Of a DNA stretch of 64,000 nt, positions 1,676-16,531 are shown piece by piece. The position numbers and the translations under genes were made by a program. Positions within the stretch are counted from its first letter, which is position 1. Each line of letters opens with the position of its first letter. The stretch is from Bugula neritina. Lineage: Eukaryota > Animalia > Bryozoa. The stretch covers positions 4,310,662 through 4,374,661 of the forward strand of contig OZ037770.1 in the NCBI GenBank assembly GCA_964035545.1, read 5' to 3'. The notes beneath the pieces were generated by a model. That model saw only the letters and a list, made by a program, of their open reading frames with translations. It made no database searches and had not been told where the DNA came from.

Positions 1676-1966
<291 letters not shown>

Positions 1967-2123
1967 AATTTTATTAAAGATAGAGTAGTTTTTATTTTTT
2001 AAATAAAAACGATTTTTTTTATATTTTTTTATTAATTTTTTTTTTGGAAAAATATTTTTGAAAACTTTTTTTATTTTTAAAAAGAAAAATATTTTTTTAA
2101 AAGAAAAGCGTTAAAACGAATAT

Positions 2124-3020
2124 TTAAACGTTATAACTTGAAAATACTGGTAGAGATTCACTAGATTCTACTATATCTCCATCACTCGTTGATAATACTA
2201 ATTTATTACCCGTTGCCCCCTGTAATTTAGGAATAGCGTGATTATTTATATTATTTATTGTAATAATATCGGTAATATTTATATCGGTTTCTACGATATT
2301 ACCATTACTCGAAAGCATTAATAATTTATTTCCAATTGACGGTTGTATTTTATTCATAGCAAAATTATTTATATTACTAGTCGTAACAACATCGCTAACG
2401 CTTAAGCTACTATCTACGATATTACCCGAAGTAGTTGAAACGGTTAATTTTTCATTCGCGGGTTGTATTTTATTTATAGCGAAATTATTTATATTATTAG
2501 TCGTAATGACATCGCTAACGCTTAAATTACTATCAATAATATTACCCGTATTAGTTGATACGGTTAATTTTTCAGTTGGGTCTCGTATAAGAGGTACGGC
2601 GTAATTAGATACATTAGTTTTTGTAACGACATCATTAACTTTTAAATTACTATCTATAACGCGTCCATCATCAGTTGATATAGTTAATTGGTTAATAGGG
2701 TTTTGTATAAGAGGTACTGCGTAATTAAATACATTAGTTTTTGTAACAACATTATCAACTTTTAAATTACTATCTATAACGCGTCCATCATCAGTTGATA
2801 TAGTTAACTGATTAATAGGGTTTTGTATTTTAGGCATACTCGTATCATCAACGTATTTTTTTGTAGCCGCGTCTTGATTGTCAGCCGGATCAATGACTCT
2901 AGATATTTTATTTTCTCCCATATCTAGCGTACCCGTAAGAGTACTACTACCGTTTATTAAAACGAATTTTTTCGTATTTATTTCCGTTTTTCCACTTCCT
3001 CCGAATTTATAAACACTCAT
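2124..3020 (-). CDS. Putative fibre/spike-like repeat protein (298 aa)
   Basis: LDMGENKISRVIDP..QDAATKKYVD motif typical of trimeric fibre/adhesin necks, followed by about six ~40-aa repeats (IQNPINQLTISTDDGRVIDSNLKV...). Confidence 0.6.
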   Translation of the reverse strand: MSVYKFGGSGKTEINTKKFVLINGSSTLTGTLDMGENKISRVIDPADNQDAATKKYVDDTSMPKIQNPINQLTISTDDGRVIDSNLKVDNVVTKTNVFNYAVPLIQNPINQLTISTDDGRVIDSNLKVNDVVTKTNVSNYAVPLIRDPTEKLTVSTNTGNIIDSNLSVSDVITTNNINNFAINKIQPANEKLTVSTTSGNIVDSSLSVSDVVTTSNINNFAMNKIQPSIGNKLLMLSSNGNIVETDINITDIITINNINNHAIPKLQGATGNKLVLSTSDGDIVESSESLPVFSSYNV

Positions 3021-3023
3021 TTA

Positions 3024-3782
3024 TTAAGGTATATAAAATTCGTCTAAGCTATGCCTATACCTTCCATTATTTTTTGAGGAAGAAAGATCTAAAGTAATAA
3101 AGCCGTGAGGTTTTTGCCATCCTTTATAACAAAAGTTTTTAAATTCGTTTAATGTTAAATCTCCGTTTATGTGATCTTGATATATATGATTTAAATTTTT
3201 TCCGTCTTGAGGAAATAAGCAAATAAAATTAGCGTTTTCTCGAATTGTGTTTCTAGGCAGCTTAAAATAATTTTGCGACAAATAAAAGCAATCGACGTTA
3301 TTGTGTCGTCCTCTTACGTAATAACTTTCGCAAGTTTTTTGTTTTTCCAACATTAAATCATCGAATATTATTAAATTTTTATTATTAGCGTCTAATTCGC
3401 TAGGGTCATAAACGTCGTTACTAGATTCTATAAATTCGGCGTCTATATTACCGTTACCCTTACTATTTTTTAAAACACGAGTTACATTTATACCCGAATT
3501 TATTATCGCGTCACTATTTTTAAAAAAATTTAAAATTTCTTCTTTAGTTAATTTACGTTCGAAAGCCTTCCTCATATTTATATATTCGGGTTGAGAAAGA
3601 CTTTTACCGTAAATCATAAGTTTATCGTAATCGAGCCAATTAGGTTGTAATAATAAATTACAAAGTAACGTAGTTTTACCGCATCCAGATTTTCCAACGA
3701 TAAGACCTCTTATGCTTTTAGGAAGTAAAGGATTATTATTACGATTAATTTCGTTTTTCCACGAAAGATTTTCTATTTCCAT
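3024..3782 (-). CDS. A32/FtsK-like genome-packaging ATPase
   Basis: Walker A GKSGCGKT, Walker B LIIFDD, RGRHNN and LSQNYF motifs. Confidence 0.93.
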   Translation of the reverse strand: MEIENLSWKNEINRNNNPLLPKSIRGLIVGKSGCGKTTLLCNLLLQPNWLDYDKLMIYGKSLSQPEYINMRKAFERKLTKEEILNFFKNSDAIINSGINVTRVLKNSKGNGNIDAEFIESSNDVYDPSELDANNKNLIIFDDLMLEKQKTCESYYVRGRHNNVDCFYLSQNYFKLPRNTIRENANFICLFPQDGKNLNHIYQDHINGDLTLNEFKNFCYKGWQKPHGFITLDLSSSKNNGRYRHSLDEFYIP

Positions 3783-3794
3783 TTATTATAATAA

Positions 3795-5159
3795 ATGTAT
3801 TGTTGTAAGTGTAAAACTAAAACGAAAACTCTTAATTACAAAAAGAGAGTAAGTAAAAATAATAGACTAATGGGTTACGGTAATTGCGGTCAATGCGGAT
3901 GTAAAAAGACTACATTCGTTGGGTCGGGTTTAGCTAATAATTTAATAAATAATTTACCCTTTGAATTGCATTATCCCGGTCATAATTTTTTAGGACCTGG
4001 TACTAAATTAAATAAGCGTCTTAATGACGACATGACTCCTAAAGAATGGAGTAAACCGGTAGATCGAGACGACGCTATAGCCATGAGACACGACGTGTGT
4101 TACGCGCTTAATAAAGATACTAAGACTAGAAACGAAATATGCGATAAAAATATGTTAGACGAACTGAAAGCTATACCTAATCCTACGCCCGCCGAACAGC
4201 GACACAGTCGTTTTGCTTCGGCAATAATAGGAGCGAAAAAGCGCTTAGGATGGGGATGGACGAACGAGTTAGCCGAAGAATTACATAAACCCGTACAAAA
4301 AAAATTTCGTAAAAGACGAGTTTGGGTATCGGGTATTGATAATATTTGGGCGGCTGACTTGGTTGATATGACTGAATTTGCTAAATTTAATAACGGTTAT
4401 AAATATTTATTAACGGTAATAGACGTGTTTTCAAAATACGGTTGGATAATACCTTTAAAAAATAAAACCGGTAAAGCGACGGCTTTAGCTTTAAAAATAA
4501 TTTTAACTCGTCGTAAACCTCAACATTTATGGGTTGACAAGGGAAAAGAGTTTTATAATAAAGACGTAAAGTCCTTAATAGACTTATATTCTACGGAAAA
4601 TGAAGAAAAGTCTAGCGTAGTAGAGAGGTGGAATAGAACAATGAAAGAGCGAATGTTTAAATATTTTTCGGCAAATAATACTTATAAATATATAGACGTA
4701 TTAAAAGATTTAGTAAAACAATATAACGAGACTAAACATTCGTCTATTGGAATGACACCAATTGAAGCTAGTGATCCTTCTAATGAAAATAAAGTACGCG
4801 TGAAATTATATCCAAACTTACCCACGCTTTCTAAACCTAAATTCGCTATAGGCGATAGAGTGCGTATACCTCGTAAGAAACGAACGTTTGAAAAAGGTTA
4901 TACAGTTAGATGGACGGAGGAGGTGTTTACTATAAGTAAAATATTATATACTAATCCAACTACTTATAAATTAACCGACTCGGGAGGAGAAGAAATTCAA
5001 GGATCTTTTTACGAACGGGAATTACAAAAGACGAAGCAAGAAATGTATAGAATAGAGCGCGTAATTAAAAAGAAAGGTAAAAAGGCTTTAGTAAAATGGT
5101 TGGGTTATTCCGATTCTCAAAACTCTTGGGTAAATTTAAACGTTTTAGAACGATTATAG
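3795..5159 (+). CDS. Retroviral-type (rve) integrase with N-terminal Zn ribbon and parvovirus-type phospholipase A2, and C-terminal chromodomain
   Basis: CCKC/CGQC; PGHNFLGPGT...DAIAMRHDVCY (PLA2); WAADLVD, WVDKGKEF, SVVERWNRT (DDE triad); YRIERVI...LVKWLGYSDSQNSWV (chromodomain). Confidence 0.93.
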   Translation: MYCCKCKTKTKTLNYKKRVSKNNRLMGYGNCGQCGCKKTTFVGSGLANNLINNLPFELHYPGHNFLGPGTKLNKRLNDDMTPKEWSKPVDRDDAIAMRHDVCYALNKDTKTRNEICDKNMLDELKAIPNPTPAEQRHSRFASAIIGAKKRLGWGWTNELAEELHKPVQKKFRKRRVWVSGIDNIWAADLVDMTEFAKFNNGYKYLLTVIDVFSKYGWIIPLKNKTGKATALALKIILTRRKPQHLWVDKGKEFYNKDVKSLIDLYSTENEEKSSVVERWNRTMKERMFKYFSANNTYKYIDVLKDLVKQYNETKHSSIGMTPIEASDPSNENKVRVKLYPNLPTLSKPKFAIGDRVRIPRKKRTFEKGYTVRWTEEVFTISKILYTNPTTYKLTDSGGEEIQGSFYERELQKTKQEMYRIERVIKKKGKKALVKWLGYSDSQNSWVNLNVLERL

Positions 5160-5160
5160 T

Positions 5161-5319
5161 GGACACAAATGTAGACACAAATGTGGATACTAGACACAAA
5201 TGTGGACACAAATGTAGATACTAGACACAAAAGTGGACACAAATGTGGACACTAGACACAAAAGTGGACACAAAAGTGGACACAAATGTAGACACTAGAC
5301 ACAAAAGTGGACACAAATT
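5161..5319 (+). repeat. Intergenic tandem array of RGACACAAAWGT 12-mers punctuated by RGAYACT 7-mers (~31-bp higher-order unit)
   Basis: Read directly from the sequence between the integrase stop and the next ORF. Confidence 0.9.
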
Positions 5320-5332
5320 TATGTTTATATAA

Positions 5333-6145
5333 ATGAGTTACTTAAAGATTCACGACCCTATAAAAAGAGATAAAACCGTACAAGATTTTATTTCTCAAAA
5401 GAATAAATTAAAAGAAAATTTTAAACGAGAACGCGAGCAAGAATTAAATGCCGCAATGGCTCAAGAAAAATATTTTGAACTCGTAATTGCTTCTCAAGCT
5501 CAAACGACTGACGCGTTAAAACAATTGCTTACATTACCCAATTATAATGTTCAACCGGCTATAACGGATGGAGTTATAAATTTAGACGAATTTACACAAA
5601 ACGCTTTAGCTGGCTTAGAACTCGGCGCTTATAACGTAAAGTGGGATGGTAATAGACACGTTATTGGTACAAAACCTATAAGCTTTAACGATGGTAAAAT
5701 AATTTTTGATAACGAAGAATATCCGGCGACTAGAGGACTTTTAAGTCTTTTAACGCGTAAAACGCCTATAGGATACGATGATAATGATTTAGCGAATTAC
5801 GCTAATATACTCGATAATAGCGGCGCTATATATCAAAGTAAACACGGTCCTATAGATAAAAATAGTGACAAGTGGAGACGTATTGTTAGACCTATTTGGG
5901 AACAATTATATCCTCAGAGAGCGAAACTCGCCGATAGTAAAAAAGCTAAAAGACAAGTCGGTGATGGAGTAGTATATTTATCGTCTGATCCTAACGCTTT
6001 AGTAGAACGACTCGAACTTTTAATTTCTAGCGCTAAAGCCGGAAATACGGGAGTACGAAATGAAATTGTGTTTATATTAGACGAATTACTTAGAATGAAA
6101 ATTATTACTCGTAACGAATATAAAAACATTCTTTTATATTTATAA
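5333..6145 (+). CDS. Conserved Polinton core/structural protein (270 aa)
   Basis: N-terminal coiled coil; C-terminal DPNALVERLELL..AGN...NEI..ILDEL motif that I recognise from animal Polinton proteins. Confidence 0.7.
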   Translation: MSYLKIHDPIKRDKTVQDFISQKNKLKENFKREREQELNAAMAQEKYFELVIASQAQTTDALKQLLTLPNYNVQPAITDGVINLDEFTQNALAGLELGAYNVKWDGNRHVIGTKPISFNDGKIIFDNEEYPATRGLLSLLTRKTPIGYDDNDLANYANILDNSGAIYQSKHGPIDKNSDKWRRIVRPIWEQLYPQRAKLADSKKAKRQVGDGVVYLSSDPNALVERLELLISSAKAGNTGVRNEIVFILDELLRMKIITRNEYKNILLYL

Positions 6146-6148
6146 TAA

Positions 6149-6466
6149 ATGTACGTTTATGATAAAAGACAACGATTACAAAGACACTACGCCGGTGGTG
6201 GAATATTCGATACCATTAGGAATGTAGTAACTAAAATAGCTAGTAATTCCAGCGTAAGAGAATTAGGTAAAAAGGCTATAGCTAAAGTGGGTACCGCGGC
6301 TGGTGAAAAAATTGTTAACGCGATTAAAAAAAGAAGGCAAAAAAAGTTAAAAAAAAGAAGCTTGAATGCTAAAAGTCAAGCTATATTACAAAAACTTAAT
6401 TTAGCTAAAGATGATAGTAATATAAGCAATATTTTAGAAGGAAGCGGACAAGCTATAGCTTATTAA
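6149..6466 (+). CDS. Small basic virion core protein with amphipathic helix (105 aa)
   Basis: GGG followed by amphipathic IFDTIRNVVTKIAS, Lys/Arg-rich tract, immediately upstream of the MCP. Confidence 0.6.
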   Translation: MYVYDKRQRLQRHYAGGGIFDTIRNVVTKIASNSSVRELGKKAIAKVGTAAGEKIVNAIKKRRQKKLKKRSLNAKSQAILQKLNLAKDDSNISNILEGSGQAIAY

Positions 6467-6487
6467 GAAATTATTTTACTATAATAA

Positions 6488-7762
6488 ATGGATTCTCTAA
6501 ACATTACACAAAAAATTGTACTCGATACGAGTGTAGAGCGCGATCAAGTACACGAATACGAACCCGTAACGGGAACGAATTTAAATAATCCCGGCGAAAT
6601 TAGAATAGTTATTAATCAGCAAGATTTGTACGTTCAGCCGAGTAAAAGTTATTTAATTATTGAAGGTCGTTTAACTAAAGCCGACGGAACCGCATACGCC
6701 GACGCCGACTTAGTAACGTTAACGAATAACGGTATGGCTTATTTGTTTAAAAGTATTAGATATCAACTCGACGGACACGACTTGGAATATATAAATAATC
6801 CCGGACACGCTTCGACCATGATGGGTTTACTAACTTACCCCGACGACTACGGCAAGTCGAGAGGTCTTAACCAGTTGTGGTCAAAAGATACTACCGCAGC
6901 CGCTGCCGCCGCTAATTTAGGTTTTAACGCGCGTCAAATTTATATTATACAAAAGCCTGACCCTAAAGGTACTTTTAGTATTAAAGTGGATCTTAGACAT
7001 TTGTTTGGGTTCGCCGATGACTATGAAAAAGTTTTATATGGTATAAAACATCAATTAACGCTAGTACGCGATACTAATGATAATGCCATATTTAGAGCTA
7101 ATGGCGTTGACGCCGGTAAAATAACGTTAGATAAAGTATCGTGGTGGATGCCTCACATAACACCCGACTTCGAAATGAAACATAAGCTTTATAAAATTAT
7201 AGAGAGTAAAACGCAGCTTCCCATAATTTATAGGTCTAGGTGGTGTGATAGTATCGCGGTGCCGCAAACTACTAATTTTACGTGGCGTTTGGGTTCTAGA
7301 GGAGATACCGAAAAACCTAAATATATTATTATAGGTTTTCAAACGGGTAAGAATGAAAGTCAAACGACTAATCCGGCCGTATTCGATCACGTTAACGTTA
7401 AAAGTATATACGCGATGTTAAATAGCGAGCGGTATCCCGAAGTTGATTACGATATAGATTTTGCTAAAATGAAGTTTAGTAGAGTGTACGGAGACGCTTC
7501 TAAATTTTGTGGAGAATATTACGGTATAAACGAGCTAATCGCTTATTCAAACGTATTACCTTCGGAATATAAAGATCTTTACGCTTTGTTCGTAATAGAC
7601 GTTAGTAAGCAAAGCGAGGCTCTTAAAAGTAGCGTAGCCGATATTCAATTAAGAGTTCAGTTTAGTCAAAATGTACCGGCTAATACTCAAGCGTACGCAT
7701 TAATTCTATCGGATAAAACTATGTCTCTTAGTTCTGATGGAAATAATTTAAAAGTTATATAA
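6488..7762 (+). CDS. Major capsid protein (double jelly-roll, hexon-like)
   Basis: 424 aa, beta-rich; EYEPV..NLN..GEIRI, PSKSYLIIEG, EKPKYIIIGFQ, LNSERYP and LFVIDVSKQ motifs; position in the Polinton. Confidence 0.9.
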   Translation: MDSLNITQKIVLDTSVERDQVHEYEPVTGTNLNNPGEIRIVINQQDLYVQPSKSYLIIEGRLTKADGTAYADADLVTLTNNGMAYLFKSIRYQLDGHDLEYINNPGHASTMMGLLTYPDDYGKSRGLNQLWSKDTTAAAAAANLGFNARQIYIIQKPDPKGTFSIKVDLRHLFGFADDYEKVLYGIKHQLTLVRDTNDNAIFRANGVDAGKITLDKVSWWMPHITPDFEMKHKLYKIIESKTQLPIIYRSRWCDSIAVPQTTNFTWRLGSRGDTEKPKYIIIGFQTGKNESQTTNPAVFDHVNVKSIYAMLNSERYPEVDYDIDFAKMKFSRVYGDASKFCGEYYGINELIAYSNVLPSEYKDLYALFVIDVSKQSEALKSSVADIQLRVQFSQNVPANTQAYALILSDKTMSLSSDGNNLKVI

Positions 7763-8521
7763 ATGGATAATAGAATTTTAAGAGAAATTGCTGATAATAC
7801 GGCCTCTAAACAAACAATGACTATAGGAGTTACCGATACTAAAACGAGAATAATTACTCAACTTAATCCGCCTATAGAATTAAATAAAAATAAAAAATAT
7901 GAAATGTGTCTTATTAGTTTGGATACGTTTTATTCTTTTCCAAACATTAGTACTGATAGAAATTCCTATAGATGGTCTAAAGACGGTGGTACTACGTGGT
8001 ATTCAGTTTCGCTACCAATTGGAGTGTATGAATTAGATCAACTAGAAGAAGCTATTCAAGACGAAATAGTAAAAGAGGGGGGTAATAGAAACGGTATTAC
8101 TTTGCAAGCTAATAAAGTAACTTTTAGAATTATACTTAAATTAAAACCAAATTATCAAATAGATTTTAACGTTGAAAATTCTCTAAGAGACGTTTTAGGT
8201 TTTGACGCGGCGATATATAATCAACCTTATATCGAAGCTATAAACATAGTAAATATTTTAAATATAAACGCTATACACGTACAAGTTGATTGTATTAATG
8301 GAAGTTATATCGATGGTACTTATAAACCCGTTATTTATTCATTTTTTCCGAGCGTTAGTCCGGGATATAAAATAATAGAAAAACCTCATAATTTAATATA
8401 CTTACCCGTTCACGTTAAATATATTAAGACGTTAACCGTTACGGTAACCGATCAAAAAGGTAATTTATTAGATCTTAGCGGTGAACAACTTTCAATAAGA
8501 TTTCATTTAAGAGAAGTTTAA
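7763..8521 (+). CDS. Minor capsid protein (penton-like, single jelly-roll)
   Basis: LNPPIEL, LPIGVYEL, I.VDCINGSY, PGYKIIEKP.NLIYLPV and TDQKGNLLDLSGE...IRFHLR motifs. Confidence 0.88.
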   Translation: MDNRILREIADNTASKQTMTIGVTDTKTRIITQLNPPIELNKNKKYEMCLISLDTFYSFPNISTDRNSYRWSKDGGTTWYSVSLPIGVYELDQLEEAIQDEIVKEGGNRNGITLQANKVTFRIILKLKPNYQIDFNVENSLRDVLGFDAAIYNQPYIEAINIVNILNINAIHVQVDCINGSYIDGTYKPVIYSFFPSVSPGYKIIEKPHNLIYLPVHVKYIKTLTVTVTDQKGNLLDLSGEQLSIRFHLREV

Positions 8522-8533
8522 CGTATTATATAA

Positions 8534-9103
8534 ATGGGTTATTGCGAAATTATAGGAAATGTGCCACAGGCGCAAAAACAAAAAATAATGAACGCTTATA
8601 GAAGCGGTAAGGGTTGCGTTATTAAATTGCCTCTCGAAAGCGGAAATGATAAACTAGTCGTTACGAAAACGCAAAATGATAATATTTTAAAAGCGTTAAA
8701 CGCGAATAAAAAAAATATAACGCTCGAAATGTCTCCGTCATTAGTAAAAACTAACGCGTCAATGAGCGGAGGATTTTTAGGAGCTCTATTAGGTATAGCT
8801 ACGAGAGTAATACCTACGCTATTAAAAACTATTATACCGGGTGTACTTTCAGGAGCTGCTAGCGCCGGAGTTGAAAAAGCTATTAAAGGTAAAGGTCTTT
8901 ATTTGAAAAGAGGCGGATGCGTATGTTCCGTAGAACCTAATTCAAACGGTTCTATTACTTTAAAACCAGTCGCGTCGTCTAATTTAATGAAGGGTAATGG
9001 TTTATATTTAAAACAAGGTTCCGGTTATATAAAAGGCGAAGGTTTAATTTTAGGTCCAAATAGTCCGTTTAAAAACATTCCTCTTTTAGGCATGCTATTA
9101 TAG
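8534..9103 (+). CDS. Virion core precursor with several adenain-type cleavage sites (189 aa)
   Basis: MSGG-FLGALL hydrophobic helix; IKGKG, MKGNG and IKGEG; C-terminal GLILGPNSPFKNIPLLG. Confidence 0.65.
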   Translation: MGYCEIIGNVPQAQKQKIMNAYRSGKGCVIKLPLESGNDKLVVTKTQNDNILKALNANKKNITLEMSPSLVKTNASMSGGFLGALLGIATRVIPTLLKTIIPGVLSGAASAGVEKAIKGKGLYLKRGGCVCSVEPNSNGSITLKPVASSNLMKGNGLYLKQGSGYIKGEGLILGPNSPFKNIPLLGMLL

Positions 9104-9122
9104 TTTAAGAAAACATATATAA

Positions 9123-9515
9123 ATGTCAACAGTAATTACTTATAAAAGCCTCGATGGCACCCCAATTAACGAAACGATATATAAAAACAATGATTGTGAA
9201 AAACGAGTATACGAAGGCGGTAATATTAAAGAAAGAATTATATATAAAAAATTTAATATATTAAACGAAATGACTAATCCGTCTAACGAATGCGGATTAC
9301 TCGAAGAAATTACTTATAATAATAAAAAAGAAATTATTTATAAAGAAAATGACGGAAAATTAAAAATAAAAACTATTTACAAAAGTAAAGAAATAATTCA
9401 AGAACTTAACGTAGGTTTAATGAATTATGCAGCGGCTAGAATACCATTATTCTTTACTAAACTAAAATACGCCGAAGACGAAATAGAAAAAAGACGAAAT
9501 GACGCTTTACATTAA
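9123..9515 (+). CDS. Hypothetical protein (130 aa) with repeated (E/T)IIYK-like beta motifs
   Basis: Open ORF with a TAAATG start like the other Polinton genes; no recognisable family. Confidence 0.6.
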   Translation: MSTVITYKSLDGTPINETIYKNNDCEKRVYEGGNIKERIIYKKFNILNEMTNPSNECGLLEEITYNNKKEIIYKENDGKLKIKTIYKSKEIIQELNVGLMNYAAARIPLFFTKLKYAEDEIEKRRNDALH

Positions 9516-9549
9516 AATAAAATATATTATAGTTAAAGAAAACATATAT

Positions 9550-9629
9550 AAATGTGTGTATAATACGGCACACGTAATTCGCTCTTAGGACCGATTATTA
9601 CGCGCTATTAGCAGCCTATACGGATATTT
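9550..9629 (+). ncRNA. Candidate structured ncRNA, copy A
   Basis: Paralogous to 10401-10478, with compensatory changes in three helices; starts at TAAATG; reading frame is only MCV*. Confidence 0.6.
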
Positions 9630-9673
9630 TTGTATTGAACTCCCTTTTTTAATTAATTGTAAAATGCAATTAA

Positions 9674-10153
9674 TTAACAAACGTTGTTACGAGCGACTAT
9701 TATGTCGCTTTTTTTATTCGATATTACGCTATTAATATCTTTATATTTTTCGGTTATAGCGTCGTACTCTTGTTCGTCTATATGAGCGTCGCTTAAAAAA
9801 TTTGATAACATAGAATTAATTTCTAATTTAGAATTTTTTATAAACGTAAAAACGTCTAAATACATTAATGTAGATTTAATTAATTTAGCGTCTTGAGAAG
9901 AAATAGAAGTAGTAATTACACTCATTATACTTACTATTATAGATAATGGTAACAACGTTTGTTTAGTAACGTTAGCGTTTAATAACGCCGTAATAATGAC
10001 ACCGCATATTAAATTCGTTATACCGCATAATCCCGAAATTATTTTTAACAATTTTGATAACCAATTAAAACGATTAAGTTTTTGCTCGTATTCGTTTTCT
10101 AATTTAATAATTTCATCGTTTAAGAGTTCTAATTTTTCTCGTCGAAAGTCCAT
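9674..10153 (-). CDS. Two-TM-helix membrane protein with coiled coils (159 aa)
   Basis: Two hydrophobic segments (IISGLCGITNLICGVIITALL; LLPLSIIVSIMSVITT); TAAATG start. Confidence 0.7.
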   Translation of the reverse strand: MDFRREKLELLNDEIIKLENEYEQKLNRFNWLSKLLKIISGLCGITNLICGVIITALLNANVTKQTLLPLSIIVSIMSVITTSISSQDAKLIKSTLMYLDVFTFIKNSKLEINSMLSNFLSDAHIDEQEYDAITEKYKDINSVISNKKSDIIVARNNVC

Positions 10154-10195
10154 TTATATAAAAAAATGATTTTTATTATTATATTATTTTATAAT

Positions 10196-10399
10196 ATGGA
10201 TCTTACCGTTGAATTACTCGATAAACTAATCGCGCAATCTAAACAAAAAAAATATTCACCATTACTCGAATATTTATATATGCCGGTAATTAGTAATACG
10301 TCTCTTAAAAATTTAAATCATAGAACAAAAAAACAAATTCCTAATATTAATAGATATTTTTATTTAAAAAGCATTTTAGTTAGAGACAAAGAACTATAA
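10196..10399 (+). CDS. Small hypothetical protein (67 aa; likely start at 10196 rather than 10166)
   Basis: In-frame ATG preceded by TATAAT; the upstream extension is low-complexity. Confidence 0.45.
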   Translation: MDLTVELLDKLIAQSKQKKYSPLLEYLYMPVISNTSLKNLNHRTKKQIPNINRYFYLKSILVRDKEL

Positions 10400-10400
10400 T

Positions 10401-10478
10401 AAATGGCGCGATACGGCACACGCAATCCGCTCTCATGACCGGTTTATTGCGCGCTATTTTAGCAGCCCGCGTTCGTTT
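10401..10478 (+). ncRNA. Candidate structured ncRNA, copy B
   Basis: Same fold as 9550-9629 with covariation; starts at TAAATG; its 11-codon ORF is in a different register from copy A. Confidence 0.6.
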
Positions 10479-10579
10479 CTCAGCGTAATATTTCATTTCA
10501 TTTTTTTAATATTTTTACTTATATATAAATAAGTAATAATATATAAAAAATTGATTACCATTAAGGAAAACAATTAGAA

Positions 10580-13500
10580 ATGGAATATTACGCTGAGAAA
10601 CTTACGATTAAAAGCTTAACAGCGTTAGCAAAAAAGCGTGGAATAAAACGATATTCCCGTTTAAATAAAACCGATTTTATGCGGTTATTAGAAGTCGAAG
10701 ACGAGTTTAAAACCGTTAAAGACTTGAAGCTTATAGCTAAACAAAAAGGGTTAAAACGATATTCTCATTTAAAAAGAGTTGAACTTATTCAACTATTAAT
10801 TAATAACGACGTTACACCCGTATTAAAAAGTGAAGCCGCTAACGGTTGGTTTCAAACTTACGAAATTAAGGGTTTACCTGGATACGATATTAATACGTTT
10901 TGCGAATTAGTAAAACTAAACGTACTAGAGTTATTAAAACCTACTATAAAAGTTAAAATATTTTTATATTGTGAAATAAAAAAGCATAATATAAGTACCG
11001 GAGAAACTATTATAGAAATTATGCCATTTACATCAAACGTTGAAATTATATTAGCTTCTACGAATATTGATGAAGTATATAATGAAATAATTCAACGTAT
11101 AAAAGAAAATTTCGCTTCATTAAACGCTAAAGGAAGTAATTGGATGTTTAATTCCATTATAAAAACGGAAATTAATATTAATAAATATCAGCCTTTTAAC
11201 GGATCATCGTGGATTGATCTTCCGAAAGAAATTAAAACGAAAAAGGCCGTAATAAATCCAAAAAATAAAGACAATAAATGCTTTATGTGGGCCATTTTAA
11301 TGGGAGTTTATCCGGTTAATAAAAATATTGAAAGAATTAATAATTATAAAGAGCACGTTAATAAATTATCGTGGGAAGGAGTAGAATTTCCGGCTACGAA
11401 AGAATCCATCGACGCTTTCGAAAAGGTTAATCCCTCAATAGGAATTAACGTATTTACGTGGGACAATAAAACGATAAATTTATGGAGAAAAACTAGCAGT
11501 CAGAATAAAATTATAAATTTACTTTATATAACTGATGGCGAAAAGAATCATTATACGTATATTAAAAATTTAAATAAATTACTCGGTTCGCAAATAAATA
11601 AACGCGTTAATGCAAAACATATTTGTATAAATTGTATGAATTCGTTTCGATCTAACGAATCATTAAAAAAGCATCAAGATTGGTGCTTAAAAAACGATAG
11701 CGTAACTACGACATTTCCAAAATTAGAAGATAAAATAAAATTTCAATCTAGTCATCATTGTCGTAGTATGAGAGTACCGTTTGTAGTATACGCGGACTTT
11801 GAATGTTTTACAAAACCTATACAAGGCTGTAAACCTAATTTTAAAGAAAGTTATACTAATCAATATCAACAGCACGAACCGTCAGGCTTTGGGTATTATA
11901 TAGTAAGCATTACCGGTGAATCTAATTATAGAACTTACACCAAAGAAGCCGAAGACGAAAATATTGGCGAACAGTTTATAAGGCTATTGGAATTTGACAT
12001 TAAAAATATTTATAAAAAATATAAATTTCCTAAACCAATGAGAATTTCAGCTGACGAGCAAAACTCTTTCGAGTTAGCTAAAATTTGCTATATATGCGAA
12101 GAAAAATTAGGCGATAAAAAAGTAAGAGATCACTGTCACTTAACCGGTAATTATAGAGGAGCCGCGCACAAAGAGTGCAACTTAAATTATAAGATTCCAA
12201 AATTTTATTCAGTATTTATTCATAACTTGTCGGGTTATGACGCCCACTTGTTTATTAAAAACTTGGGCGGTAAAATTTCCTGCATACCCAATACTGAAGA
12301 AAAATATATATCCTTTAGTAAAAAATTAATAGTAGATGAATTTACTATAGACAATAAAAATATTGAAGTTACGCGTGAAATTCGCTTTTTAGACTCATAT
12401 AAGTTTATGAGTTCTAGCTTAGCGAGCTTAGTAGCGAATTTAAAGCGCGACGACTTTAAACACTTAGGTGAATATTATAAGGGAAAACAATTAGACTTAG
12501 TATTAAGAAAAGGAGTATTTCCGTACGACTATTTTAATAATCTAAGCGTATTGGATGAAACGTCTTTACCACCTAAAGAAAAGTTTTATTCAAGCTTAAC
12601 CGAGCAAAATATTTCGGAAGAAGATTATATACACGCTCAAAACGTTTGGAAGGAGTTTAATATGGAAACGTTTAGAGAATACCATAATTTATATTTAAAA
12701 ACCGACGTATTACAGTTAGCGGACGTGTTTGAAAACTTTAGAAATATATGTCTCGAACACTATAAATTGGATCCCGCTTGGTATTATACGGCTCCCGGCT
12801 TGTCGTGGGACGCTATGCTCAAAACTACTGAATTAAAGTTAGACCCAATTACCGACATTAACCAACTACTCTTCTTCGAAAAGGCTATTAGAGGTGGTGT
12901 GAGCGTAATTAGTCATAGACACGCTAAAGCCAATAATAAATACATGAAAAATTATAATCCCAAAGAGCCTAGTAGTTATATCGTATATTTAGACGCTAAT
13001 AACTTATACGGTTGGGCTATGTCTAAAAATTTACCCACGGGTAATTTTAAGTGGCTAACCGAAAAGCAATGTAAAAGTTTGGAAAAAAGTTTAAATTTTC
13101 CGCCTAGCTTTTTAGAAGTAGATTTGGAATATTCTAAAAAATTACACGACTCGCATAAAGATTATCCATTCTGCCCCGAAAGATTAACGATTAATAAAGT
13201 GGAAAAATTAATTCCCAACTTAAATAATAAAAAGAATTATATTATACATTACGAGGCGTTAAAACAATGCCTTATGTATGGCTTAAAATTAACGAAGATT
13301 CATAGAGGTATAACCTTTAATGAATCGAATAAGTTAGAAAAATATATAAAATTAAATACCGAACTAAGAACTTTAGCTCGAAGCGATTTTGAAAAAGATT
13401 TCTTTAAACTAATGAATAATTCCGTGTTTGGTAAAACGATGGAAGATATTCGTAATAGAGTTAACGTTAAGTTGGTTACTAGCGAAAGCGAAGCTAAAAA

Positions 13501-14182
13501 GTTTACTAATCAACCAAACTTTAAAAACTTCACTATATTTTCCAAAAATTTAATAGCCGTTCATATGAACGTAACTAAATTAAAGTTTGATAAACCCGTA
13601 TATTTGGGAGCCGCAATTTTGGATATTAGTAAAATCCTTATATATGACTTTCATTACGAGTATATTAAACATAAATACAATAATAAAGCGCAATTGTTAT
13701 TTACGGATACGGATAGTTTAATGTATCACGTAAAAACAGAAAATTTTTATAAGGATATATTACCAGATATTAAAAATAAATTTGATACTAGTAATTATCC
13801 TAAAAATCATAAATCGGGTATACCAACCGGTAAAAATAAAAAAATAATAGGAAAATTTAAGGATGAAGCCGGTGGCAAACAAATTACGGAGTTTGTAGGC
13901 CTAAGGGCTAAATTGTATTCTTATAAAATGGATAATATAGAAGAGAAAAAATGTAAAGGTATTAATAAAACAACTCGCGATAATCGCATAACGTTTGACG
14001 ATTATAAAGAGTGTTTATTAACGCGACAAGATCAGCTTAGAACAATGAACGTGCTAAGAAGTCATAAGCATACAATGTACGCTGAAACAATAAATAAAGT
14101 GGCGTTATCATCCGAAGACGATAAAAGAATTATATTAGAAGACGGTATAATGACAGTCCCTTACGGTTATATAAATGATTAA
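10580..14182 (+). CDS. Protein-primed family B DNA polymerase (pPolB) with two N-terminal Rho-N/HEH-like repeats and an endonuclease VII-like insert
   Basis: Exonuclease motifs VYADFE, HNLSGYD and YLKTDV; polymerase motifs YLDANNLYG, KLMNNSVFGK and FTDTDS; CYIC...RDHCHLTG..RG..H..CN (EndoVII-like). Confidence 0.96.
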   Translation: MEYYAEKLTIKSLTALAKKRGIKRYSRLNKTDFMRLLEVEDEFKTVKDLKLIAKQKGLKRYSHLKRVELIQLLINNDVTPVLKSEAANGWFQTYEIKGLPGYDINTFCELVKLNVLELLKPTIKVKIFLYCEIKKHNISTGETIIEIMPFTSNVEIILASTNIDEVYNEIIQRIKENFASLNAKGSNWMFNSIIKTEININKYQPFNGSSWIDLPKEIKTKKAVINPKNKDNKCFMWAILMGVYPVNKNIERINNYKEHVNKLSWEGVEFPATKESIDAFEKVNPSIGINVFTWDNKTINLWRKTSSQNKIINLLYITDGEKNHYTYIKNLNKLLGSQINKRVNAKHICINCMNSFRSNESLKKHQDWCLKNDSVTTTFPKLEDKIKFQSSHHCRSMRVPFVVYADFECFTKPIQGCKPNFKESYTNQYQQHEPSGFGYYIVSITGESNYRTYTKEAEDENIGEQFIRLLEFDIKNIYKKYKFPKPMRISADEQNSFELAKICYICEEKLGDKKVRDHCHLTGNYRGAAHKECNLNYKIPKFYSVFIHNLSGYDAHLFIKNLGGKISCIPNTEEKYISFSKKLIVDEFTIDNKNIEVTREIRFLDSYKFMSSSLASLVANLKRDDFKHLGEYYKGKQLDLVLRKGVFPYDYFNNLSVLDETSLPPKEKFYSSLTEQNISEEDYIHAQNVWKEFNMETFREYHNLYLKTDVLQLADVFENFRNICLEHYKLDPAWYYTAPGLSWDAMLKTTELKLDPITDINQLLFFEKAIRGGVSVISHRHAKANNKYMKNYNPKEPSSYIVYLDANNLYGWAMSKNLPTGNFKWLTEKQCKSLEKSLNFPPSFLEVDLEYSKKLHDSHKDYPFCPERLTINKVEKLIPNLNNKKNYIIHYEALKQCLMYGLKLTKIHRGITFNESNKLEKYIKLNTELRTLARSDFEKDFFKLMNNSVFGKTMEDIRNRVNVKLVTSESEAKKFTNQPNFKNFTIFSKNLIAVHMNVTKLKFDKPVYLGAAILDISKILIYDFHYEYIKHKYNNKAQLLFTDTDSLMYHVKTENFYKDILPDIKNKFDTSNYPKNHKSGIPTGKNKKIIGKFKDEAGGKQITEFVGLRAKLYSYKMDNIEEKKCKGINKTTRDNRITFDDYKECLLTRQDQLRTMNVLRSHKHTMYAETINKVALSSEDDKRIILEDGIMTVPYGYIND

Positions 14183-14588
14183 AATAAAAAATATAAAATT
14201 ACAAAATAAAGCTCTCTCAAATATTGAATTAGAGTTCGCGATTAAAAAATTAAAAATACCATTTTTTAGAGGAGTATTTTCAAGAAACGATTTACCCAAT
14301 AAACTACGTAAAAAAGAGTGCGGTATATTAAATTTAGACAATTTAATGGGTAACGGTACTCATTGGGTAGCTTGGTATAAAAATAAAAATAAAAAATATT
14401 ATTTCGATAGTTTTGGATTACATCCTCCGCTAGAAATAATGAAATATTTAAAACCGCCTATATTTTATAACACGGAACGAGTACAAAAATTCGGTACCGT
14501 TATATGCGGACACTTGTGTTTATATTGGCTTAAAGAAATGTCTAAACGCGAGTCGCCTCAATTAATTATAAATAAATTACTTATATAA
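14175..14588 (+). CDS. Adenain-like cysteine maturation protease
   Basis: GTHWVA (His), YFDSFG (Asp), Q...CGHLC (Gln/Cys). Confidence 0.93.
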   Translation: MIKIKNIKLQNKALSNIELEFAIKKLKIPFFRGVFSRNDLPNKLRKKECGILNLDNLMGNGTHWVAWYKNKNKKYYFDSFGLHPPLEIMKYLKPPIFYNTERVQKFGTVICGHLCLYWLKEMSKRESPQLIINKLLI

Positions 14589-15101
14589 ATGACTTCAGTT
14601 TATATTTTTGGAAATTCAGCTAATATAATAAATGAACAACCGTATATTACGAATATTATAATTCCGTCAGAATTTACGTATTATTTAGGAGGATTTACTA
14701 CTACATTAATTAAAGATTTTTTAGTCGATGAACCGATTGAAATAACAGATATATTAGTACAATTTTACGGTGAACAAGCTCATAATACTAAAAAACTTTA
14801 TTGGACTGATAAGCGAATAGGCTTACATATTAGAAATAGTACTGAATTATTTAATCCATCCAATGAAAATACTTTTTATAATATAAGCGGTAATGAACAC
14901 AATCTTCCGTTTAGTGAATTAAACGCTAATAAAATTATTGAAGCTAATAAAAACTTTAAATTAACAATAGCGTTATCAAAAAATTATCCTAGTCATAAAC
15001 CTAGCGACATAATTTTAATCGATACTCCCGCTAGCGAAATAACCGATGCGGCATTACCTTTTCATTACGTATTAGTAAAACTTTATTATAACTATAAATG
15101 A
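14589..15101 (+). CDS. Tandem paralogue 1, unknown beta-rich protein (170 aa)
   Basis: Closely similar to the next two ORFs (QFYG, LYWTDK, YPSHKP, LPFHYVLVKLYYNYK). Confidence 0.75.
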   Translation: MTSVYIFGNSANIINEQPYITNIIIPSEFTYYLGGFTTTLIKDFLVDEPIEITDILVQFYGEQAHNTKKLYWTDKRIGLHIRNSTELFNPSNENTFYNISGNEHNLPFSELNANKIIEANKNFKLTIALSKNYPSHKPSDIILIDTPASEITDAALPFHYVLVKLYYNYK

Positions 15102-15631
15102 ATTCGGTATATATTTTTGGAAATTCAGCTAAGGCTAATATAATAAATGAAAAACCATATATTACGGATATTATAATTCCGTCATATTTTTTACATATTT
15201 ACTTTCCTGACAGATTTGAAGGAATATTAATTAGAGATTTTTTAGTCGATGAACCAATTGAAATAACAAATATATTAATACAATTTTACGGTGAACAAGA
15301 TCATAATACTAAAGAACTTTATTGGACTGATAAACAACTAAGCTTAGAAATTAGAGATAGCGCTAATACATTTAAGCATGGTGCAGTCACTGAAAATATT
15401 TTTTCTTATGATATAAGCGGTGCTGAGCATAATGTTCCGTTTAGCGAAATAAACGCTAATAAAATTATTGAAGCTAATAAAAATTTTACATTATCAATGA
15501 CATTATCAAAAACTTATCCTAGTCATAAACCTAGTAATGTTATTTTAACCGATACTCCCGATAGCGAAATAACCAATGCGGCATTACCTTTTCATTACGT
15601 ATTAGTAAAACTTTATTATAATTATAAATGA
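15098..15631 (+). CDS. Tandem paralogue 2 (177 aa)
   Basis: Same motifs; overlaps both neighbours through ATGA start/stop junctions. Confidence 0.75.
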   Translation: MNSVYIFGNSAKANIINEKPYITDIIIPSYFLHIYFPDRFEGILIRDFLVDEPIEITNILIQFYGEQDHNTKELYWTDKQLSLEIRDSANTFKHGAVTENIFSYDISGAEHNVPFSEINANKIIEANKNFTLSMTLSKTYPSHKPSNVILTDTPDSEITNAALPFHYVLVKLYYNYK

Positions 15632-16206
15632 ATATTTATAAATTTAGTAAAGTCGATATAACGACTAATAAAGCGTTTATTTCAGGTCTTATTAACGCCA
15701 ATAAATTTTATTATTACGAAAATATTAATAGTTTTACAGTAGATTTAATTAACGATTATTTAGTAAATAAACCAATTAAAATAACACACGCATTAATACA
15801 ATTTTATGGTGACCGTTTTACTTGGGCTAAAAAAAGAGTATTATATTGGACCGATAAAAAAATAGGTTTACATATTCGTAATAGCGTAAATCCATTTGAT
15901 GAATCTAAAGAAAATTTATTTTATACTATTAGCGGTGCCGAACATAATGTTCCATATAGTAAAATAAATATTAATAAAACCGTTAACGCTAATAATAATT
16001 TTTCCTTTACAATAGCTCTTTCGAGTGATTATCCAAGTCATAAACCCGATGACGTAATTTTAACCGATACTCCTACTAACGAAATATATACCCAATCATT
16101 ACCTTTTTTTGGGTATATTTTAAACTTTATTATAATAGCATTCATGAATAATCTACTAATAATTATTTTTTTTAAAATAAATAATTTTACACTACTAATA
16201 AAATAA
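15628..16206 (+). CDS. Tandem paralogue 3, with a probable 1-nt deletion near the C-terminus
   Basis: Same motifs; the conserved KLYYN ending lies in another frame near 16122-16136. Confidence 0.7.
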   Translation: MNIYKFSKVDITTNKAFISGLINANKFYYYENINSFTVDLINDYLVNKPIKITHALIQFYGDRFTWAKKRVLYWTDKKIGLHIRNSVNPFDESKENLFYTISGAEHNVPYSKININKTVNANNNFSFTIALSSDYPSHKPDDVILTDTPTNEIYTQSLPFFGYILNFIIIAFMNNLLIIIFFKINNFTLLIK

Positions 16207-16306
16207 TAAAGGGTAAATTACTGTTATAACACTCTTCAAAAAAAGTGAGCCAAAACCATCCACCCTAAAAATATTTTTTTTATTTTTAAAAATAAATATT
16301 TTTCTA

Positions 16307-16467
16307 AATAATATTACACTATTTTTTATAATATTATACTACTTTTTATAATATTACTAATAGAGTAGTAGCAGGTGGATGCGTCCTGGATCGCTCTTCT
16401 GACACTGGCGAGTCAAAGACTCGACGGTGGAAGAAGAGTGAGCCAGGACCATCCACCTGCTACTACT
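16307..16467 (-). repeat. Right TIR of the Polinton
   Basis: Inverted copy of 1806-1966; the inner boundary is approximate. Confidence 0.95.
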
Positions 16468-16531
16468 TATATATATATATAAATAGGTATACGAGAAAGA
16501 TTGTTGATTTATTACTTTATTAGGTAAAGTA

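Follow-up and report, generated by a model that had tools for sequence, protein, structure and literature searches.

The Polinton in the window (the whole 64-kb stretch of DNA that was analysed) contains a real, covarying structured element on its plus strand, which is present in two copies, A and B, as a result of duplication within the Polinton and which is uncatalogued. There is little doubt that the structure of A and B is under selection. Judged from their sequences, the elements are very probably functional and probably act as RNA, and the chance that they yield a discrete plus-strand RNA is about even. The reading preferred here, tentatively, is that A and B are separate RNAs of ~80 nt that serve as protein-binding decoys, like the VA RNAs of adenovirus but outside that family. 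A covarying RNA pair would be the first non-coding gene for Polintons, and it would represent either an independent origin of the arrangement seen in VA RNAs or a new ribozyme. The weight of the finding is limited by the narrow range of A and B, which are known here from sequence alone.

Polintons have been considered the ancestors of many eukaryotic dsDNA viruses (PMC7805220, in part), and they are annotated by their protein genes. The host element of A and B is a 14.7-kb provirus of the Polinton/adintovirus type (1806 to 16467), in which every ORF is open. It has AGTAGT ends and terminal inverted repeats (TIRs) of ~150 bp, and TATATA flanks it on both sides, inside a (TA)n tract. The proteins encoded are an A32-type ATPase, a PLA2-rve-chromo integrase, a double-jelly-roll capsid, a protein-primed PolB of 1200 aa, and a C5-like protease, the match for the last being weak (E 0.0088). 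Thus, the hallmarks of Polintons and adintoviruses (TIRs, rve integrase, protein-primed PolB, A32/FtsK ATPase, protease, and double-jelly-roll capsid) are all found. The PolB gives no match to PF03175 and was identified by its motifs and by 35-54% identity to other polymerases; these motifs would fit the Beta class of PMC8502044 (in part). Among the best 120 matches to the capsid, homologues from a scallop and a bryozoan are 56-59% identical, and others reach 83-97%; the host is accordingly most likely an invertebrate. No RNA polymerase was found among the ORFs of the Polinton.

Element A (9550 to 9629, plus strand) consists of a terminal stem (P1a/P1b), a 4-nt bulge, AUAC (9563-9566, plus strand), a helix P2 (GGC/GCC), and a three-way junction with the linkers ACA, C, and A, from which two arms extend: P3, a long arm with a 3' bulge, a C-C mismatch, and a 4-nt loop, and P4, a short hairpin. 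Its paralogue B (10401 to 10478, plus strand) is alike in architecture and has a closing stem of another sequence. Both elements are sited between Polinton genes, ~850 nt apart, with a gene in between. Immediately upstream of A is a 130-aa ORF with no assigned function (9123 to 9515, plus strand), and upstream of that lies a conserved virion-module gene (8534 to 9103, plus strand). A 159-aa ORF (9674 to 10153, minus strand) is convergent on A; its weak signal, under the curated cut-offs, is that of a SLATT-like two-helix membrane protein. A 77-aa ORF (10166 to 10399, plus strand) ends at the start motif of B, and the gene for the protein-primed DNA polymerase (10580 to 14182, plus strand) begins 101 nt 3' of B. 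Other copies of the region carry a compensated one-base shift near 10309-10315 and differ after 10378, so the 77-aa ORF may be shortened in the present copy.

When A and B were re-examined, their coordinates, sequence, and helices agreed with the description in the earlier note. They are also, as that note had it, GC-richer islands, A having 40% GC and B 54%, whereas the spacers next to them have 9% and 16% and the Polinton has 31%. The minimum-energy structure of both plus strands is the common architecture, with pair probabilities that are mostly 0.85-1.0. Six marker pairs have a probability of 0.89-1.0 when the RNA is trimmed to the unit; in longer contexts (23 for A, 19 for B), the fold is erratic, and the probability of P2 ranges from 0.00 to 0.98. 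The predicted dominance of the fold in unit-length RNA over longer contexts lends mild support, at best, to a stand-alone RNA.

Pairing had been claimed to be preserved between A and B, and in a 67-column alignment of the core all 23 pairs are standard in each element, with both sides changed in six pairs and one side in one. When the alignment was slid as a control, 21-40% of cells paired. A shuffle control, which is weak in having two rows only, reached the real score in 16 of 500 cases. Random placement of six core substitutions over 54 columns kept 17 of 17 pairs together with at least two double changes in 0.06% of 200,000 trials, a figure that is biased in favour because the structure was derived from the same sequences (A). 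Folding z-scores are weak (-1.51 for A and -0.80 for B). The minus strands fold slightly lower, as a rod (-20.2 vs -19.1 and -25.8 vs -23.6 kcal/mol). The plus-strand bias reported earlier is nevertheless found in all six G·U pairs of A, B, and the natural variants; since each of these would turn into A·C if the minus strand were the one that folds, the strand is assigned as plus, a call made from the G·U pairs alone. In addition, A and B have no common reading frame, as had been noted, their small ORFs being MCV* and MARYGTRNPLS*, respectively, and no peptide is conserved.

Natural variants provide further evidence for the structure. Portions of the region turn up in twelve public runs, with at most 38% of the sampled words in any one of them, and the variants were drawn from contigs of five public runs, a single one of which bears an RNA label, itself a guess. 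Over the stretch of A, 71 contigs were compared and eight substitution places were counted, in a hand tally from tables rather than an alignment. Six of the eight make three compensatory pairs (9575/9600, 9579/9594, and 9584/9589); at 9584/9589, C-G has become U-A, a compensatory change that is absent between A and B. The remaining two comprise one place in the L3 loop and one that breaks U9578-A9597, a helix-end pair of P3. A9600G also occurs alone, in three runs from two studies, yielding a U·G intermediate, and insertions at 9607, present in four runs, fall in the loop of P4 and lengthen it. Furthermore, there is a third type of variant, with its own TAATAAATG, which in one related copy lies directly 3' of ORF 8534 where ORF 9123 is absent. 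The strands of its closing stem are different but still paired, including the UG of its AUG, and the mismatch is placed alike; the bulge, P2, and P4 are retained, and P3 is opened by a 3-nt insertion. We infer that the two halves of this variant belong together from their equal depth (99.3) and common breakpoint at 9599. The variants have a common ancestry with B and so cannot be counted as independent; they strengthen the claim of a conserved plus-strand structure with its 5' edge at the gene-start motif.

The same contigs reveal that an element of the A/B type is present in only some copies of the lineage. The outer stem of A is without 7 nt in four contigs (two runs), other contigs carry several deletions, and two contigs that are ~87% alike have no A-sized piece at the junction. 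Damage to A among endogenous copies fits the decay that would be expected, and A at its junction is clearly not required in every lineage.

Both A and B begin at TAAATG, which is indeed, as first noticed in the earlier note, the motif of protein-gene starts. It opens 14 of the 15 Polinton ORFs of at least 100 aa, the polymerase being the exception, and ATAAATG occurs 21 times in the Polinton: at 14 ORF starts, at A, at B, and at five other places. The start region of A (9527 to 9554, plus strand), ending in TATATAAATG, is identical in 27 of 28 nt to the start region of ORF 9123 (9098-9125), and the start motif of B, TAATAAATG (10397 to 10405, plus strand), is of the Polinton gene-start class and has AATAAA inside it. 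In each element, the AAAUG at the 5' end is paired with the 3' strand, although the 3' strands differ. Late promoters of poxviruses have TAAAT(G/A) overlapping the start site, and the likeness extends to the AT-rich tract that runs up to and includes TAAATG at gene starts and leaves no space for a 5' UTR (PMC5294985, in part). However, poxviruses encode their own RNA polymerase whereas the Polinton has none, and we infer initiation at its motif. The TAAATG region also reads as a stop codon plus a poly(A) signal, and in the related Polintons L030, L031, and L033 the start context is merely A-rich; given such starts in several relatives, TAAATG may serve as a context for translation or polyadenylation and not as a promoter. 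Gene starts of the TAATAAATG type are also seen in locus L035. Within the present Polinton, a perfect 18-nt palindrome lies at 3780-3797, where the genes for the ATPase and the integrase diverge from starts that are 12 nt apart, with TAAATG on each strand; consequently, 5' UTRs of these two genes are only possible within the opposite gene.

In the decoy reading, TAAATG would be the transcription initiator of A and B, as in poxvirus late promoters, and the RNA would end near the U-rich 3' strand that is paired with the AAAUG 5' end. The terminal stem would then bury the AUG, and the RNA would not be translated. The stems, which change freely, would set the geometry only, while the unchanged bases of the bulge and junction would form a binding surface. 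By analogy only with VA RNAs, which are abundant, discrete transcripts and bind dsRNA sensors of the host, the decoys might act in trans on a host RNA-sensing or RNA-silencing factor. This reading is favoured because the stems vary but the bulge and junction are fixed, the ends pair, and the element is duplicated, accessory, and without an antisense target, the longest exact match elsewhere in the window being 10-11 nt. The patchy presence and the duplication suit an accessory gene. On the other side, the helices of A and B are short for a dsRNA mimic.

As to the ends of such an RNA, T-runs had been reported to follow both elements. In A, a T5 run (9627 to 9631, plus strand) at the 3' end is a candidate RNA end. 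The long run of B, T7 (10501 to 10507, plus strand), lies 23 nt past the fold, and the T4 that B has internally, at 10457-10460, would carry a risk of premature termination. One run whose RNA label is guessed has a contig of 113 nt with its start at 9553, which was considered as evidence for an RNA end and rejected, since contigs cannot show RNA ends. There is little cover just upstream of it, in a spacer that has 9% GC, so this is uninformative; the contig has a loose end that resembles a library adapter. The L3 loops were also rejected as dimerisation sites, as they are self-complementary in B and in one variant but not in A.

VA RNAs have internal boxes A and B, a GGGU-ACCC stem, a T4 terminator, and a length of ~160 nt (PMC7589676, in part), and they occur singly or paired (PMC7589676 and PMC9145648, both in part). 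Like VA RNA I and II, A and B form a head-to-tail pair with paired ends in a virus that has a linear dsDNA genome and a protein-primed polymerase. A possible duplication is a further likeness, as may be the T-run after the fold, which in B comes 23 nt further on (PMC7589676, in part). However, A and B are 78-80 nt instead of ~160 nt with an apical stem, and they have no pseudoknot and no sequence match to the VA RNAs, the Rfam model of which gave no hit at E<=10. They also start at a protein-gene motif and lie ~850 nt apart with a gene between them. On the plus strand of A, neither box A nor box B occurs within one mismatch of the consensus; B alone has one-mismatch matches, at 10404 and 10471. 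Neither tetranucleotide of the GGGU-ACCC stem is present in A or B. The analogy drawn in the earlier note thus stands for the arrangement, that is, duplicated small elements with paired ends, and falls for membership on the boxes, the stem, and the half size. A and B may thus work like VA RNAs, but they are not members of the family. An Sm site of the kind found in HSURs, AUUUUUG, is present at 9626 in A only, partly within the terminal stem, and is not found in B.

It has to be asked whether A and B might instead act in cis, as an RNA boundary that directs 3'-end formation, cleavage, or insulation of read-through mRNAs. This is unlikely, but several aspects of the gene order are in accord with it. 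There are only two internal rightward gene blocks, and each ends in one of the elements, A preceding the convergent ORF 9674-10153 and B preceding the polymerase. The genes of the Polinton are packed stop-to-start with spacers almost absent. The variant placed directly 3' of ORF 8534, where ORF 9123 is missing, fits as well, and the AATAAA or TATAAA within the start motif is a possible poly(A) signal. However, a terminator needs no gene-start motif, and yet the AAAUG is kept and 3'-paired in A and B and partly so in the third variant. Furthermore, the fold is predicted to be often lost within long transcripts, and some copies have no A at its junction.

A self-cleaving ribozyme of an undescribed kind, in which the bulge and junction would be the active site, the stems a scaffold, and cleavage the means of setting mRNA ends, is quite unlikely. 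The small self-cleaving ribozymes (hammerhead, twister, twister-sister, pistol, hatchet, and HDV-like) are of a size like that of A and B, with fixed junction bases and a covarying outer stem, and a small core, invariant unpaired bases, variable loops, and a covarying closing stem are their usual pattern. A and B have a core of ~65 nt, fixed single-stranded bases, variable loops, and a closing stem that covaries fully. Against this, there is no Rfam match at E<=10, no CUGANGA core, and no pseudoknot common to A and B; the copies are too close for invariance to carry weight, and so narrow a distribution would be unusual for a ribozyme class. The earlier statement that no hammerhead, twister, pistol, HDV, or tRNA core is present was borne out by motif, pseudoknot, Rfam, and ARAGORN checks. 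An exact CTGANGA occurs on neither strand, and GAAA is found only outside the folds of A and B. No partner for a bulge, junction, or loop, as in HDV-like, twister, pistol, hatchet, or xrRNA pseudoknots, is common to the two elements, and ARAGORN reported 0 tRNA genes in 1800-16500. Rfam scans of A and B at E<=10 gave chance-level matches only, far under the gathering scores, and the elements thus match no Rfam family at that threshold.

Loop A of 5S rRNA is a three-way junction with a 5' linker of 3-4 nt and two single-base linkers after the end of a GGC helix. The junction of A and B is comparable in layout, which is a lead only; A and B differ in that their arms are much shorter, loop E is missing, and Rfam gives no 5S match at E<=10. 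It would be a long shot to regard A and B as small RNAs of a new class, with a catalytic or processing role, that is made from a poxvirus-late-type TAAATG initiator and that provides the first non-coding RNA genes of Polintons. If so, animal Polintons would cut or shield their own transcripts by RNA, and they may borrow the transcription machinery of a helper virus. Because the start motif is paired with the 3' end, A and B offer a short, direct test of the Polinton transcription start and polymerase.

Covariation cannot separate RNA from ssDNA, and A adopts the same fold with DNA energies. Thus, the structure could in principle be one of ssDNA, formed during strand-displacement replication, or A and B could be a mobile cassette that inserts at gene starts, in either case with no RNA role. 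The existence of copies with and without the element, as well as the duplicated start region of A, would be in keeping with this. Nevertheless, such a DNA-level origin is distinctly doubtful, as G·U (or G·T) wobbles are tolerated on a single strand only, the elements have no terminal repeats, and the covariance model found no extra copy elsewhere in the window, where nothing exceeded 12 bits; in addition, the link to the gene-start motif would be unexplained.

Another proposal starts from the polymerase, which alone among the 15 ORFs is without TAAATG, the nearest motif being that of B, 180 nt upstream. In this model, B is a structured 5' leader through which the polymerase mRNA would be controlled, at translation or by feedback, and A would be a duplicate that has been displaced. 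The helices of B survive extension to the polymerase start (P2 0.91), and the polymerase bears two N-terminal Rho_N domains, which bind nucleic acid. However, A and the third variant have no plus-strand gene downstream, yet their fold is kept by compensatory changes, and the leader model is very unlikely. The polymerase also has an internal stretch that is Endonuclease VII-like.

Double-jelly-roll viruses are not known to use a pRNA-like RNA. A role as a virion or packaging-motor RNA, like the pRNA of phi29, is exceedingly improbable: the gross shape is similar and the start motif is common to virion genes, but there are no complementary interlocking loops (no pairing is found between L3 and L4 in either element, and the loops vary freely among copies), and relatives with 59%-identical ATPases have no such element. 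In the pRNA, it is a 5'/3' helix that contacts the ATPase by binding, and the RNA further contains a CCA bulge and a three-way junction (PMC3753930, in part). A and B resemble it in the three-way junction, the bulged 5'/3' terminal helix, and the setting of protein-primed replication, and differ from it, as far as that source describes it, in lacking interlocking loops, in not being conserved with the ATPase, and in belonging to another capsid lineage.

On present data, the A/B element appears to be confined to one Polinton lineage. A search of related Polintons with a covariance model had been proposed beforehand, and its outcome went partly against the element: A and B themselves score 88-97 bits, and no homologue was found outside the lineage in 11 distant Polinton-type loci (L027-L037, several of them partial), the best score being 12.5 bits. 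The capsids of these loci are 38-58% identical to that of the present Polinton and the polymerases 35-54%. Protein-based scans of IMG/VR or GTDB for Polinton relatives found none. A pattern scan yielded 26 loci (21 in IMG/VR, 3 in JGI, and 2 in GTDB), all of which were rejected: they have other folds, a GC content of 42-70%, and at best 20.6 bits, and tblastn finds no Polinton protein near any of them. One of the loci, for which ORFs were listed, sits inside a bacterial coding gene. A stricter pattern gave 0 loci in IMG/VR, and the pattern used for JGI and GTDB was too strict for the third variant. A blastn search of phages gave three short matches, at chance level. Since the collections are mostly prokaryotic and the closest protein relatives are not sampled as DNA, the range of the element is undersampled.

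The literature searched, which consisted of search listings with most subscription papers outside its scope, describes no Polinton non-coding RNA, in line with the earlier note. In the available main text of two papers on animal Polintons (PMC8502044 and PMC11131425), the terms 'non-coding', 'noncoding', and 'promoter' have zero occurrences. Polintons are absent from the available main text of a viral structured-RNA screen (PMC10690425), the supplements of which could hold a similar motif.

Several other features of these Polintons were observed. Six of the distant loci (L031, L032, L034, L035, L036, and L037) are Polinton-type contigs filed inside bacterial metagenome-assembled genomes, probably by binning contamination. 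In L029, the spacer before the polymerase (4581-4983) is strongly folding and internally repeated, with a z-score of about -5 against simple shuffles; it is unrelated to A and B. The TIRs of the present Polinton (1806-1900 and 16370-16467) contain a long GC-rich hairpin, the first 89 nt of which would fold as RNA at about -41 kcal/mol. A repeat-rich ORF of 298 aa lies at 2124-3020 (minus strand), and 14589-16206 contains, in tandem, three ORFs of 170-192 aa that are paralogues of one another and match no family. Finally, a tandem array of 12/19-nt units occupies 5158-5324, between the integrase and the next gene, and L031 has a different tandem array (7158-7338) before a gene homologous to the one that follows the 5158-5324 array.
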